64,000 nucleotides of DNA, from sequence record OZ035782.1; one strand, written 5' to 3'. The notes beneath the pieces were generated by a model. That model had not been told where the DNA came from and ran no database searches. It was given only the letters and a program-made list of their open reading frames with translations. A program made the translations under genes and the position numbers. The stretch comes from Felixounavirus LF110P2. This document shows, piece after piece, positions 29,943 to 40,918 of this stretch; within the stretch, counting starts at the first letter, position 1, and the number at the start of each line of letters is the position of its first letter.

Positions 29943-30824
29943 ATGAAAACATCTATCCGTGTTACAGTTCATTCACCAACTAAAGGGACTCATGAAGAAG
30001 AGTTTAACATCGTCCAATTCCCTTCTGGTGAGATTGGTGGACACTTTTCGCCAGAGTTTGTTGATTTTACTGCTTATGCAGCATCATCTATCAACAATGT
30101 GATTATGATTGTAAAAGGTTATGATAAAGATACATTGTTTGCTGTGGCACTTGCTAAAGAGGCGGTGGATAACTTAGTACCTCATAAGTTTGCTATGAAG
30201 ACCATTATCTTTTACTATTTGCCAAATGCACGTTATGACCGTCACATGTTTAAAGGTGATGCAGCAGCTTTGAAAGTGTTTGCACAACAGGTTAATGCAA
30301 TGGGTTTTGATGCAGTCTGTGCAGTTGACCCTCACAGCTATGTACCAGATAACCTGTTTAACTGCTTCCAGAGTATTCCTCAAAAGGAAATTGCAGTCCA
30401 CTATGCAAATGACCCACTGATTGATTACTTAGTAGCCCCAGATGCAGGTGCTGCTAAGAAGATTGCAGAGACTGCTAAAGAGGTGGATAAACCATACATC
30501 ACAATGTCTAAAGTGCGTAACCTTAAGACTGGTGAAATTACTGGTATGCGAATCCTTGATGATGTTGATTTGACAGATAAAACCGTCATGATTCTGGATG
30601 ATATCTGTGATGGTGGTCGAACCTTCATAGAAGCAGCGAAACATCTTCGTGAAGCAGGTGCAAAACGTGTGGAACTTTATGTAACACATGGTATCTTCTC
30701 TAAAGATGTTGAAAACCTTCTTGACAATGGTATCGACCATATTTACACTACAAACTCTTTAGGCGAAGCTAAAGACCGTGGCTTAACACATTACAGTCAA
30801 GTTACTGTAGCAAACCTTGATTGA
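29943..30824 (+). CDS. prs: ribose-phosphate pyrophosphokinase (PRPP synthetase)
   Basis: PRPP-binding motif VMILDDICDGGRT; directly upstream of NAMPT; start moved to Met 29943. Confidence 0.65.
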   Translation: MKTSIRVTVHSPTKGTHEEEFNIVQFPSGEIGGHFSPEFVDFTAYAASSINNVIMIVKGYDKDTLFAVALAKEAVDNLVPHKFAMKTIIFYYLPNARYDRHMFKGDAAALKVFAQQVNAMGFDAVCAVDPHSYVPDNLFNCFQSIPQKEIAVHYANDPLIDYLVAPDAGAAKKIAETAKEVDKPYITMSKVRNLKTGEITGMRILDDVDLTDKTVMILDDICDGGRTFIEAAKHLREAGAKRVELYVTHGIFSKDVENLLDNGIDHIYTTNSLGEAKDRGLTHYSQVTVANLD

Positions 30825-30832
30825 AAGTTTAT

Positions 30833-30854
30833 AGGGGCTTAAAAGCCCCATTTT
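30833..30854 (+). terminator. putative terminator/attenuator hairpin
   Basis: GGGGCTT-AAA-AGCCCC followed by ATTTTG. Confidence 0.4.
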
Positions 30855-30869
30855 GAGAGAGATTAAAAG

Positions 30870-32651
30870 ATGACTAAATCACTTTATGCAGTACCAGCAG
30901 GTTTAAACGCAGATGCTTACAAATCTGGTCATGTTTACCAGTACCCTAGTGCAACAGAGTACTTGATGTTCAACCTGACACCACGTAGTGACAAATGGTT
31001 TAACAGCCCCTTAGCAATTGATGGTGTAGTAGCTTTTGGTATTCAACGTTTCGTTAAAGATTACTTGATAGACCACTGGAACGCCACTTTCTTTGAACGT
31101 GATAAAAAAGAAGCCATTGATGAAATCTTAGAAGTCATGAATGGTGTTCTGGGTAAAGATGCTATCGGTCGAGAGCATTGGGAAGCACTTCACGACTTAG
31201 GTTATCTACCAGTTGAAGTATACGCTGTAGAAGAAGGCACAGTTGTTCCAATGCGTGTCCCGATGATTGTCTTTCAGAACACTGTTTCAGGTTTTCATTG
31301 GGTAGCGGGGTATCTGGAAGATGCTTTCTCTGCTGAAATTTGGAAGGCTTGCACCATTGCAACTATTGCATTGCATTACAAACGCATCTGTAAGAAGTGG
31401 GCTGACCTTACTTGTGACAATGACTTACATTTACCTTATCAGTGCCATGATTTTGCTATGCGTGGTATGTCCGGCTTTACTGATGACGCATTTAACGCTG
31501 TAGGTCACTTAACCAGCTTTAAAGGAACTGATAGCTTCCCTGCTGTGTATACGGCTAAACGAATCTATGGACAGTCCTACCCAATCTCTGATATTGGTAG
31601 CTCTGTACCAGCCACTGAGCACTCTGTAATGTGTGCAAACATTGCTTGGAAAGGTGGCAATGAGTTGATTGAAGAAGAAAGACGCTTTAAAGGTGAGTTA
31701 CAAACCTTCCGTCGTTTCTTAACAGAAACTTACCCAACTGGTATTGCAAGTGTTGTTTCAGATACTTATAACTTCTGGAGAACTGTGTCAGAAATCTTAC
31801 CAGCACTCCGTAAAGAAATTATGGAACGTGATGGTAAACTGGTAATTCGTCCTGACTCTGGAGACCCTGTACATATTGTCACAGGTTATAAAGCAATCCA
31901 CTTAGAGTGTGCTAAAAAGGCTTATTATGAGCACCTAAGCAAGCTGGAAGCTAGTGACACAATGCTGAATGCTGTTCTGAACATGAAGCTTGAAAACATC
32001 AACTATGGTATTGCTGGATGGCTACTGTCAGAAGGCTACGAAATGGTTGTTGACAGAGAAGACTTTGAAGCTGCTGATACGGTGCTGTTGAAGAATGCTT
32101 ATATGGTTGGCTCTGCAAACGTTGTAACACGTCCTGTAGCGGAGATTGATGGAGCTATTAAGACACTGTACAACATCTTTGGGGGAACTATTAACTCTAA
32201 AGGGTTTAAGGTACTGGATGAGCACATCGGCCTTATCTATGGTGACTCTATCACACTGGAACGTGCAAACGAAATCCTGAAGCGTCTGTATGAAATGGGT
32301 TTTGCAAGCTCTAACGTAGTGTTTGGTGTAGGCTCTTACACTTACCAGTACATGACTCGTGACACCTTTGCATTTGCTGTCAAAGCAACTCTTGCAAGCA
32401 TTGGTGGTAAAGAGATTATGCTTGCAAAAGACCCTAAAACAGATAGTGGTGTTAAGAAATCTGCCTTTGGTGGTGTAGCACCTATGTGGGATGGTGATAA
32501 GCTGAAAGCTGTAGATGGCTATGGGTTCCAGAGTTTTGCAGATGTACTTGACCACCCAGCTTGTGCCTTACGTTTAGTCTTTAGTGACTCTGAGCAGTTC
32601 GGTTACACAACTCTTGGTGATATTCGAAATAATATTGACAAGCAGCTTTAA
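30870..32651 (+). CDS. nadV: nicotinamide phosphoribosyltransferase
   Basis: Conserved NAMPT blocks DAYKSGH, HDFAMRG, FKGTDS, VPATEHS, VVSDTYNFW, IRPDSGDP. Confidence 0.85.
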   Translation: MTKSLYAVPAGLNADAYKSGHVYQYPSATEYLMFNLTPRSDKWFNSPLAIDGVVAFGIQRFVKDYLIDHWNATFFERDKKEAIDEILEVMNGVLGKDAIGREHWEALHDLGYLPVEVYAVEEGTVVPMRVPMIVFQNTVSGFHWVAGYLEDAFSAEIWKACTIATIALHYKRICKKWADLTCDNDLHLPYQCHDFAMRGMSGFTDDAFNAVGHLTSFKGTDSFPAVYTAKRIYGQSYPISDIGSSVPATEHSVMCANIAWKGGNELIEEERRFKGELQTFRRFLTETYPTGIASVVSDTYNFWRTVSEILPALRKEIMERDGKLVIRPDSGDPVHIVTGYKAIHLECAKKAYYEHLSKLEASDTMLNAVLNMKLENINYGIAGWLLSEGYEMVVDREDFEAADTVLLKNAYMVGSANVVTRPVAEIDGAIKTLYNIFGGTINSKGFKVLDEHIGLIYGDSITLERANEILKRLYEMGFASSNVVFGVGSYTYQYMTRDTFAFAVKATLASIGGKEIMLAKDPKTDSGVKKSAFGGVAPMWDGDKLKAVDGYGFQSFADVLDHPACALRLVFSDSEQFGYTTLGDIRNNIDKQL

Positions 32652-32665
32652 AAGTATATGATAAG

Positions 32666-39408: not shown

Positions 39409-39410
39409 CT

Positions 39411-39737
39411 ATGCAGATTAATGGAAGAGACTTTGTAGCCGTTTACTACGAGAAAGATAAAGAAGTTGGCGTAGCACAAGTAACTTACGGCAATGGTAAG
39501 TGGCTATATGGAACAATTGCAGTGGTCGGAACAAGAAGTGACACAAAAACTTTTAAAGATTGTGTTGACCTTCTTGAAGAATCCATTCAGAATCATTGGT
39601 GTCTGATATGGATGACTGACAACGAAGTGATAGAACGCTTCAAAAAGATTGATATCAACATTGATAGTATTGAGCATGTTGATTTATATGAGCTAACTGA
39701 GAAGGTAAACTATGAAAGTAATACTAGCCAGAGATAA
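39411..39737 (+). CDS. hypothetical protein
   Basis: 108-aa ORF. Confidence 0.4.
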   Translation: MQINGRDFVAVYYEKDKEVGVAQVTYGNGKWLYGTIAVVGTRSDTKTFKDCVDLLEESIQNHWCLIWMTDNEVIERFKKIDINIDSIEHVDLYELTEKVNYESNTSQR

Positions 39738-39939
39738 AAAGACACGAAAGCTTATCAGGTCAGCAGTGTTCATTGGACGAAATGAGGTCATCCCATTTAC
39801 AGCAAATGATGTGATAGCTTACAGGAAGAACTTAGTATTCACTGACTGCTTACGTGGCTTCATCTCTGAACCATTGGAAGACTTTAAAAGTCGTTGTGGT
39901 AAAGGTATCATCATTCAAGAGGCAATTATTCATGGCTGA
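39712..39939 (+). CDS. hypothetical protein
   Basis: 75-aa ORF. Confidence 0.3.
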   Translation: MKVILARDKKTRKLIRSAVFIGRNEVIPFTANDVIAYRKNLVFTDCLRGFISEPLEDFKSRCGKGIIIQEAIIHG

Positions 39940-40132
39940 CTTCTGTAAAGATTGTTCTATCGAAATGTTCGGACGTGATACAGGTGACTTAAAAGGTCTT
40001 ATCACTGAAGATGACTTTAAAGCTGGCTACGCAATGCCAGTAATCTGTGAAGGTTGTGGGTGCATCTGGGTAGACCACGAAGGGCAACGTGTAAAACCTT
40101 CAGAAGATAAAGAATCTTGGGAGAGATGTTAA
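39854..40132 (+). CDS. hypothetical Cys-containing protein (start uncertain)
   Basis: CKDC...CEGCGC motifs; overlaps previous ORF. Confidence 0.35.
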   Translation: MASSLNHWKTLKVVVVKVSSFKRQLFMADFCKDCSIEMFGRDTGDLKGLITEDDFKAGYAMPVICEGCGCIWVDHEGQRVKPSEDKESWERC

Positions 40133-40918
40133 ATGGGTATTGTAAAAATCATCAATGGCGATATCTTTGCAGCATTTGATAAAGGTAAGTTTGACATCAT
40201 TGGTCACGGTTGCAACTGTATGAATTTAATGGGTGCAGGTATCGCTGACAAGATTTCTAAACTTTACCCAAAAGCATATGAGACCGATACAGAAGTTTAC
40301 CTCTATGCAGGTGGTATAGGTCACAAACCCTGTGAAAATCTACTGGGTAATTTCTCTGTAGCACGTTTAGAACAAGGCCGTATAGCTAACCTTTACACTC
40401 AGCTTAAGACTGGTAAAGATGCCCGATACAGTGCTTTAGAGTCATCTTTGAAACAACTTAACAGATACTGTGAAGTCAATCAGTTGAAGAAAGTTGGGTT
40501 ACCTATGATTGGTGCAGGTATCGGTGGACTAGACCCTCAAGCCGTCACAGTTATCATTAATCAGGTGATGAAGAGTGTAGATGTGTATCTTTATGTCTAC
40601 GAAGGAGAGATGTACCACAAGTTACGCTCAGGTTGGAAGAACTACTGTGAACCAGAATACTTTGCAGGTGTAGCAGTGTTCACAGATGATACAGTTACCC
40701 TCTTCAGACGAAGAAAAGGTAAGATACATCAAAGTAACCCTCCGGTTGAAAAGATGTCTCTAAGTAACGCTCTAGTTACCCACCTGTCGAAGAGCAATCA
40801 CAGGATTGCAGTAACATTTGGCAGTGATGCAGATACTTACATCTATGCAAGAACTGATGAGGATATCGAGACAGTTTTCTCTTCGCCAGAAGTTACCTTC
40901 TTAGACGCAAAGAACTAA
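40133..40918 (+). CDS. macro-domain protein (ADP-ribose binding/processing)
   Basis: INGDIF...DIIGHGCNCMNLMGAGIADKI matches the macro signature GDI..D.IVNAAN..L.GGGV..AI. Confidence 0.65.
   Translation: MGIVKIINGDIFAAFDKGKFDIIGHGCNCMNLMGAGIADKISKLYPKAYETDTEVYLYAGGIGHKPCENLLGNFSVARLEQGRIANLYTQLKTGKDARYSALESSLKQLNRYCEVNQLKKVGLPMIGAGIGGLDPQAVTVIINQVMKSVDVYLYVYEGEMYHKLRSGWKNYCEPEYFAGVAVFTDDTVTLFRRRKGKIHQSNPPVEKMSLSNALVTHLSKSNHRIAVTFGSDADTYIYARTDEDIETVFSSPEVTFLDAKN

Follow-up and report, generated by a model that had tools for sequence, protein, structure and literature searches.

Evidence for a NARP1 gene pair and a separately placed macro-domain protein in Felixounavirus LF110P2

The adps–namat pair and its described relatives

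The NAD+ reconstitution pathway NARP1 was discovered by knockout and metabolomics in gp79-80 of Bas63, which is Escherichia phage JohannRWettstein of the BASEL collection (10.1101/2024.02.11.579819). Here we describe a 64,000-nucleotide stretch of Felixounavirus LF110P2 (record OZ035782.1; hereafter the window), which covers the three quarters at the right-hand end of a Felixounavirus genome. Two adjacent genes in this window, at 29943-30824 and 30870-32651, almost certainly constitute the NARP1 pathway of this phage, as judged from their sequences. The pair is already known and was first found in the genus Felixounavirus itself, and is in that sense an ordinary finding. A macro-domain gene farther downstream was also analyzed.

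Osterman et al. started from the hypothesis that the two Bas63 proteins were a Prs producing phosphoribosyl pyrophosphate (PRPP) and a Nampt producing nicotinamide mononucleotide (NMN), and then refuted it (10.1101/2024.02.11.579819). Bas63 lacking genes 79-80 was sensitive to SIR2-HerA and NAD+ depletion was deeper, protection was independent of host pncC and nadR, and ADP-ribose pyrophosphate (ADPR-PP) was seen only in cells having the defence system and the phage genes together (10.1101/2024.02.11.579819). The purified Prs-like homologue from SpbetaL1 pyrophosphorylated ADP-ribose, whereas no product was detectable in its control reaction, the substrate of which is ribose-5-phosphate according to the figure legend and PRPP according to the running text; the SpbetaL1 Nampt homologue converted ADPR-PP and nicotinamide to NAD+ (10.1101/2024.02.11.579819). 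The enzymes were named Adps and Namat, and no phage was found with both NARP1 and the Nmnat-containing pathway NARP2 (10.1101/2024.02.11.579819). Activity has been demonstrated in vivo for Bas63 and in vitro for the SpbetaL1, ICP1 and P. foliorum enzymes (10.1101/2024.02.11.579819, PMC12774641, PMC13586617), and structures and mutants of the ICP1 Adps have been published (PMC13586617).

The three genes considered here are as follows.

29943-30824, + strand: adps ("Prs"), 293 amino acids (aa); putative ADP-ribose pyrophosphate synthetase with a Prs-like fold, first NARP1 enzyme
30870-32651, + strand: namat ("NAMPT"), 593 aa; putative nicotinamide ADP-ribose transferase with a Nampt-like fold, second NARP1 enzyme
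40133-40918, + strand: macro gene, encoding a two-domain protein of 261 aa

All three open reading frames (ORFs) had been proposed in a sequence-only reading of the window, and each was present on the + strand at these coordinates. In the case of adps, the mechanical ORF opens at a TTG codon at 29928, and relatives annotate the start as the ATG at 29943. Felixounavirus LF110P2 (OZ035766.1) matched the region from 29900 to 41000 at 100% identity, and many Felix-O1-like phages of E. coli and Salmonella matched it at 95-97%. The adps and namat genes are adjacent on the + strand with a spacing of 45 nt. Pfam assigned Pribosyltran/Pribosyl_synth to adps, NAPRTase and NAMPT_N to namat, and Macro to the macro gene, each above the curated cut-offs. 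The window thus contains adjacent, co-oriented Prs-like and Nampt-like genes with the Pfam domains of the founding NARP1 paper. Public records name the products ribose-phosphate pyrophosphokinase, nicotinamide phosphoribosyltransferase, and phosphatase or macro domain protein, respectively.

One line of evidence for NARP1 is orthology to the experimentally validated pair. Adps was 80% identical to Bas63 gp79 across all 293 aa and Namat was 99% identical to Bas63 gp80 over its full length, both without gaps, and in the Bas63 genome (MZ501086) the genes are ordered as in the window and have the same lengths (882 and 1782 bp). From this orthology, and because the published residues for catalysis and specificity are conserved as described below, we infer that this phage's own alleles would have Bas63-like activities.

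Comparison with ICP1 Adps indicated that most of its published residues are retained. ICP1 residues F18, R87, H121 and D161 correspond to F26, R97, H131 and D167 in the window protein, the catalytic K185 to K190, and F221 to F228. The PP loop of ICP1 (D212-D213-I214-C215-D216) corresponds to D219-D220-I221-C222-D223, such that the window protein has both the catalytic Lys and the remodelled PP loop. Among NCBIfam models, the only one that Adps passed was the broad TIGR01251 (ribP_PPkin) subfamily, with a score of 127 against a cut-off of 113. It failed all of the Prs equivalog models, the best being NF002095 (106.5 bits against a cut-off of 296), and Pribosyltran_N was absent from its Pfam matches. 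These results fit a protein that would have a Prs-like fold without being a Prs.

Namat aligned with the SpbetaL1 Namat crystal structures 9w5w and 9w5x with an E value of 3e-128 (HMMER alignment). A signature in the clamp helix, GSXphiXphiXphiTRD with aromatics as the third and seventh residues of the motif, separates Namat from Nampt (PMC12774641). The window protein contains G488-S-Y-T-Y-Q-Y-M-T-R-D498 (GSYTYQYMTRD), in which the aromatics are Y490 and Y494. The selectivity-clamp loop supplies either an Arg, or a Lys or Tyr followed by a stacking residue, and the variant with Lys followed by a stacking residue was described for Bas63 (PMC12774641). The loop in the window protein, S40-D41-K42-W43, is identical to that of Bas63 and provides the adenine-stacking residue. 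The Nampt-like catalytic core was also conserved on alignment (D15, Y17, F195, R198, D221, A248, the catalytic H251, R327, D329 and G458-D459-S460), including the Arg equivalent to SpbetaL1 R306; the sequence-only reading had named loss of catalytic residues from the NAMPT-like protein as a check on its proposal. The clamp and core positions were invariant across four sequences, those of the window, an Erwinia Kolesnikvirus, Vibrio phage AG74 and ICP1. In a separate observation, ICP1 isolate 2017_Dha_Y (L007:3781-5100) has the clamp sequence YQYVTCD, with a Cys replacing the Arg in the TRD of other Namats; the annotated Namat ORF of this isolate is missing the N-terminal ~57 aa.

The database names favor a different reading, in which a genuine Prs and a genuine NAMPT would make NMN, and an NMN adenylyltransferase (NMNAT) encoded elsewhere or by the host would complete NAD+ as in NARP2-like salvage. 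Pfam, PHROG and NCBIfam names all read Prs and Nampt/NAPRTase, and SpbetaL1 Namat still converts PRPP to NMN in vitro (PMC12774641). This route was already refuted for the Bas63 orthologues, as protection did not require pncC or nadR, ADPR-PP was detected, and the SpbetaL1 enzyme acts on ADP-ribose. In addition, the window proteins have the Namat-specific adenine clamp and fail the Prs equivalog cut-offs, and NARP1 and NARP2 have not been found together in a phage (10.1101/2024.02.11.579819). A hidden Markov model (HMM) scan for NMNAT (PF01467) and Nudix (PF00293) domains gave no match among the scanned ORFs with a length of 120 aa or more; the remaining window ORFs of this size were assigned by synteny to named Bas63 replication and nucleotide-metabolism genes. 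The annotation of the entire Bas63 genome likewise contains no NMNAT or Nudix gene. We therefore regard the PRPP-to-NMN route as largely refuted already and as very improbable for this phage.

These results bear on several proposals of the sequence-only reading, which had described the genes as part of an NAD+ counter-defence set taking ribose-5-phosphate and nicotinamide to NMN, and had suggested that an NMNAT not recognized in the window might lie elsewhere. Orthology to Bas63 gp79-80 supports an NAD+-restoring counter-defence module, and the HMM scan likewise recognized no NMNAT among the ORFs that it covered. The PRPP-to-NMN chemistry did not survive, as it repeats the misannotation refuted in the NARP1 paper and the window orthologues are 80% and 99% identical to the proteins concerned. 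The need for an NMNAT elsewhere falls with it: because the pair is NARP1, which requires none, the absence of this enzyme is the expected state.

Three observations weigh against assignment of the pair to NARP1. First, two ICP1 Adps contact residues are changed in the window protein (F92 to M102 and F223 to E230); Bas63 gp79 has the same two changes. Second, the N-terminal domain of Adps (aa 1-180) had just 57-83% aa identity to Bas63 gp79 and is more diverged than the surrounding region. The corresponding DNA (29943-30482) was 61-81% identical to Bas63, compared with 91-98% aa identity for the C-terminal part of Adps, 96% DNA identity for namat and 93% DNA identity for the ORFs upstream of adps. 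Third, SpbetaL1 Namat keeps about half of the PRPP-dependent NMN-forming activity of human Nampt in vitro (PMC12774641), and by analogy this residual activity leaves room for a minor NMN route in the window phage. With regard to the diverged domain, phage Ro111lw has the N-terminal Adps allele of the window type (98.6% DNA identity), and the tblastn identity bands suggest two Adps allele classes among Felixounaviruses. In some relatives an HNH homing endonuclease is inserted within or beside the NARP1 genes.

If the pair functions as NARP1, NAD+ would be regenerated in two steps. An NAD+-depleting defence such as SIR2-HerA/Nezha, Thoeris, DSR1/2, SEFIR or a similar system would cut NAD+ to ADP-ribose and nicotinamide. 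Adps would then move the beta,gamma-pyrophosphate of ATP onto the 1'' position of ADP-ribose to form ADPR-PP, and Namat would couple ADPR-PP with nicotinamide, releasing pyrophosphate and regenerating NAD+. This route would have no NMN intermediate and would require no NMNAT. Carriage of NARP1 predicts resistance to a large class of NAD+-depleting defences, which is relevant to phage therapy with Felixounaviruses; this group includes the LF82 and NRG857 phages related to the window. The main value of the assignment is a correction of annotation. Pfam, PHROGs, NCBIfam and nearly every deposited Felixounavirus record keep the Prs and Nampt names, which send readers looking for a missing NMNAT.

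The two-domain macro protein

Two characterized phage proteins are relevant to the macro gene. T4 Tk.4 is AdfM, and its knockout makes T4 sensitive to DarTG2 (10.1101/2025.11.20.689424). Adpp of Vibrio phage Gary (KNV71_gp137) is an ADP-ribose (ADPR)-1''-phosphate phosphatase; its gene lies between adps and namat, and it enables NARP1 to defeat aRES, a defence with a RES domain (10.64898/2026.01.28.702374). The window protein consists of two parts.

40133-40612, + strand: macro domain (aa 1-160) of the Tk.4/AdfM/Adpp phage family
40610-40918, + strand: C-terminal beta-rich domain (aa ~165-261), confidently modelled

An AlphaFold2 model built with 31 homologues had a predicted local distance difference test (pLDDT) value of 89.5 and a predicted template modelling (pTM) score of 0.88. 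In this model the macro domain packs on the C-terminal domain, which is predicted to consist of six or seven beta strands and a terminal helix. Pfam gave no family for the C-terminal domain, the matches being noise such as PH at an E value of 0.17, and when 1.84 billion representatives were searched exhaustively with phmmer, only three matches came back, all of them from the same family or spurious. Tk.4-like proteins that also have two domains matched the model structurally over its full length; they come from SUSP2, Erwinia phage MM7 and Acinetobacter phage 133, and the Acinetobacter protein is annotated tk.4. A distant family member, P0026, has a different C-terminal domain (cREC_REC, cyclic-phosphate processing) and was not used as evidence.

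The macro protein belongs to PHROG 335, a very large phage family, and tblastn identified relatives in 2848 phage records. Its macro domain was about equally close to TARG1, DarG and Poa1p in a PDB profile search (E values of 4e-17, 5e-16 and 4e-15, respectively), and fold searches agreed; fold alone cannot assign the activity of this protein. The window protein shared 35% identity with T4 Tk.4 across its entire macro domain (E 3e-24) and 27% identity with Gary Adpp over its whole length (E 2e-13). As T4 Tk.4 in turn shares 35% identity with Gary Adpp, the two activities cannot be told apart by sequence. All three proteins share the motifs H-x-x-N-C...M-G-x-G-I-A, N-x-Y-x-Q and P-x-I-G-x-G.

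Individual positions were compared with those of characterized macro domains. His25 of the window protein aligned with His23 of yeast Poa1p, the residue mutated in PDB 6lfs (Poa1p residues were taken from mutant PDB entries), such that homology to the validated Adpp and to Poa1p includes this conserved His. Asn28 aligned with the catalytic Asn of PhiKZ AdfM and DarG (PMC13309987). The catalytic Lys is K84 in TARG1 and, by published structural equivalence, K80 in DarG and K78 in PhiKZ AdfM (PMC13309987). The window protein does not have this Lys; the position is occupied by Gln90, which is invariant in the family alignment, and a Gln is also found at the TARG1 Lys position in T4 Tk.4 and Adpp. 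In this comparison MAFFT places PhiKZ K78 one column off, and the DarG equivalence rests on the TARG1 alignment together with the published structural equivalence. Taken as a whole, the macro protein most likely hydrolyses an ADP-ribose derivative.

One possible role is that of AdfM, in which the protein would strip ADP-ribose placed by DarT2 from phage DNA, thereby countering the DarTG2 toxin-antitoxin defence in a manner unrelated to NAD+ reconstitution. We consider this role a serious candidate while leaning slightly against it. The nearest experimentally characterized relative is T4 Tk.4, which has the anti-DarTG2 phenotype (10.1101/2025.11.20.689424), although that support is genetic and not biochemical. 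The two-domain tk.4 of Acinetobacter phage 133 aligned over its full length, and the sole NCBIfam match of the macro protein was the DarG model, although it scored only 48 bits against a cut-off of 250. The substitution of Gln90 for the catalytic Lys of TARG1, DarG and PhiKZ AdfM argues against this role, but T4 Tk.4 has the same Gln, which keeps the role tenable. When co-occurrence was compared as genus-level record counts, ~1000 Escherichia phage records had the macro family and ~178 had an Adps homologue; therefore, the macro family mostly works without NARP1.

The same counts weigh on the other role considered, as most phages with the macro family have no Adps. Here the protein would be an Adpp-type ADPR-1''-phosphate phosphatase acting in trans (NARP1-AP), converting the aRES product to ADP-ribose, which Adps and Namat would then convert to NAD+. 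Full-length homology to the validated Gary Adpp, 24-36% identity to other NARP1-adjacent macro proteins, the shared motifs and the alignment of His25 with Poa1p His23 all favor this role. The NARP1-adjacent Adpp of Acinetobacter phage phiAbaA1 was in the same subclade of a neighbour-joining tree, which was built without bootstrap and serves as an indication only. Moreover, adps, namat and the macro gene are in the same order in two Ounavirinae genera. The published census of NARP1-AP covered two genes around NARP1, a range that leaves out the macro gene, and lists no Felixounavirus in its table (10.64898/2026.01.28.702374). On the other hand, the macro gene does not lie within two genes of adps or namat and is outside the NARP1 operon, from which 7.5 kb, 14 ORFs and three terminator-like hairpins separate it. 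The macro protein also resembles T4 Tk.4 more closely than it does any verified Adpp, and T4 lacks NARP1; in addition, the two activities are inseparable by sequence. We therefore view the Adpp-type role as possible and rather unlikely. We found no paper naming both Felixounavirus and NARP1, and the aRES preprint makes no mention of Bas63 (10.64898/2026.01.28.702374).

The AdfM-like and Adpp-like roles need not be exclusive. That the macro domain serves the NAD+ module in an Adpp-like role is a live, unproven possibility that would compete with the AdfM-like role, and we treat the macro protein as a separate, only loosely related counter-defence candidate compared with the NARP1 pair. In an extension that we consider doubtful, Ounavirinae (Felixounavirus and Kolesnikvirus) would run an extended NARP1-AP with the phosphatase at a distance, in which the two-domain macro protein of the Tk.4 family would feed ADP-ribose to Adps and Namat. 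If this were true, NARP1-AP would be commoner than the published 15% of NARP1 phages, a value obtained by counting within two genes. The Tk.4/AdfM/Adpp family might also be bifunctional, combining DNA de-ADP-ribosylation with ADPR-1''-phosphate phosphatase activity, and the orphan C-terminal domain could add further specificity. The only part of the locus with any novelty is this conserved two-domain macro protein, which may be anti-DarTG2, anti-aRES or both.

Predicted transcription units and neighbouring genes

Hairpins and promoters were identified by consensus pattern scans, as opposed to transcript data. The hairpins starting at 29105, 32663, 36796, 38591 and 40948 are all G+C-rich with a T-run behind them, and several lead straight into a ribosome-binding site and start codon. 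Transcriptional read-through is common in phages. The features that delimit the units are listed below.

29105-29127, + strand: terminator-like hairpin and T-run with a 9-pair stem; upstream boundary of the adps–namat unit, directly followed by a ribosome-binding site and ATG at 29145
29145-29660, + strand: 171-aa ORF with an HNH-like motif (phrog_3500); first gene of the predicted adps–namat unit
29653-29931, + strand: 92-aa ORF (phrog_4726); second gene of the predicted adps–namat unit
32635-32686, + strand: promoter-like site TTGACA-16-TATGAT abutting a terminator-like hairpin; downstream unit boundary
36796-36819, + strand: terminator-like hairpin after rIIB, from the consensus scan
38591-38608, + strand: terminator-like hairpin; upstream boundary of the spanin-to-macro unit
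38632-39142, + strand: overlapping i-spanin/o-spanin pair; first genes of the macro-containing unit
40948-40989, + strand: terminator-like hairpin after the macro gene

The predicted NARP1 unit extends from 29145 to 32651 and would contain the 171-aa ORF, the 92-aa ORF, adps and namat. It is followed by a G+C-rich hairpin and T-run (32663-32686) that begins 12 nt past the namat stop codon and is found at the same place in Bas63 and Ro111lw. The macro gene lies in a separate predicted unit (38632-40918) that would be opened by the spanins and contain five small ORFs. The spanin genes are so named in the Bas63 annotation; one product has an N-terminal transmembrane segment and the other a lipobox (MSGC). 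The sequence-only reading had placed the macro gene in the same early operon as the NARP1 pair. This arrangement is not supported, in view of the 7.5 kb between namat and the macro gene, which contain 14 ORFs, including rIIA, rIIB and polynucleotide kinase, and the three terminator-like hairpins at 32663-32686, 36796-36819 and 38591-38608.

The 171-aa ORF had no Pfam or NCBIfam match and a weak PHROG match to HNH endonucleases, with the motif LGHHKPVTKGGEHHCANW...DNQKQGDN. It was 52% identical to gp081 of the Erwinia Kolesnikvirus, which occupies the same place upstream of adps, and the NARP1 transcription unit may include it as a conserved gene. The 92-aa ORF was dissimilar to the ORF at the same position in the Erwinia phage. 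RyDEP, an ADPR-signal glycosidase with a RyR domain, is another known NARP1 accessory. A RyDEP candidate was not found near the NARP1 genes, as the 171-aa upstream ORF and a 111-aa downstream ORF have no Pfam family; of the smaller neighbours, the 92-aa and 58-aa ORFs were compared with PHROGs, and the 92-aa ORF with NCBIfam as well.

A recurring layout was seen at 29076-29144, 32635-32705, 38591-38631 and 26900-26945, in which a G+C-rich hairpin and T-run precede GGAG and a start codon by ~10-20 nt in a compact intergenic space. The copies at 32635 and 29076 also have a sigma-70-like promoter immediately before the hairpin. Transcripts starting at these two promoter-like sites would lack the 5' arm of the hairpin and would thus escape termination.

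Other features of the window were observed outside the region of the three genes. The segments 17360-18378 and 26269-26898 contain three homing-endonuclease-like ORFs, namely HNH_3+AP2, a SegE-type GIY-YIG protein and a NUMOD3 protein just past nrdD; in Bas63, nrdD is instead split by a homing endonuclease. At 18624-19379, a 251-aa ORF contains a nucleotide pyrophosphohydrolase domain that is PRA-PH/MazG-like (E 5e-6). The segment 56700-58115 encodes a 471-aa protein that combines DUF2828 and DUF7788, and a 377-aa protein with three immunoglobulin-like domains is encoded on the minus strand at 53487-54620, beside the endolysin region.

Comparison with known systems

The closest known system is NARP1 of Bas63, a phage of the same genus. 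In addition to gene order and gene lengths, the two loci have the hairpin after namat in common, and all published catalytic and specificity residues are kept. They differ in that Bas63 has one additional small gene past this hairpin.

Compared with SpbetaL1 Namat (9w5w/9w5x) and ICP1 Adps, the window proteins have the same folds, catalytic core, adenine selectivity-clamp motif and PP-loop DDICD. The clamp loop of the window Namat has Lys-Trp where SpbetaL1 has Arg. The window Namat also carries an insertion of ~84 aa (aa 344-427) that is missing in SpbetaL1 and ICP1 and is common to Ounavirinae. This insertion is encoded at 31899-32150 of the window, after the RPDSGDP loop; it is present in the Erwinia Kolesnikvirus and shorter in Vibrio phage AG74.

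NARP2 of KVP40, which consists of Nampt and a bifunctional Nmnat/Nudix protein, shares with the window a Nampt-family enzyme that restores NAD+ against depleting defences. In contrast, NARP2 takes PRPP through NMN and needs Nmnat, whereas the window protein has the Namat clamp and not the Nampt state.

With respect to the macro protein, T4 Tk.4/AdfM has the same HGCNC, NLYTQ and IGAGIG motifs across the macro domain but lacks the additional C-terminal domain of ~100 aa seen in the window protein. Adpp of NARP1-AP belongs to the same macro family with the same motifs, and both Gary and the window phage carry NARP1. However, Adpp adjoins adps and namat or sits between them, as is the case in AG74, whereas the window macro gene is 7.5 kb away and its product has a second domain.

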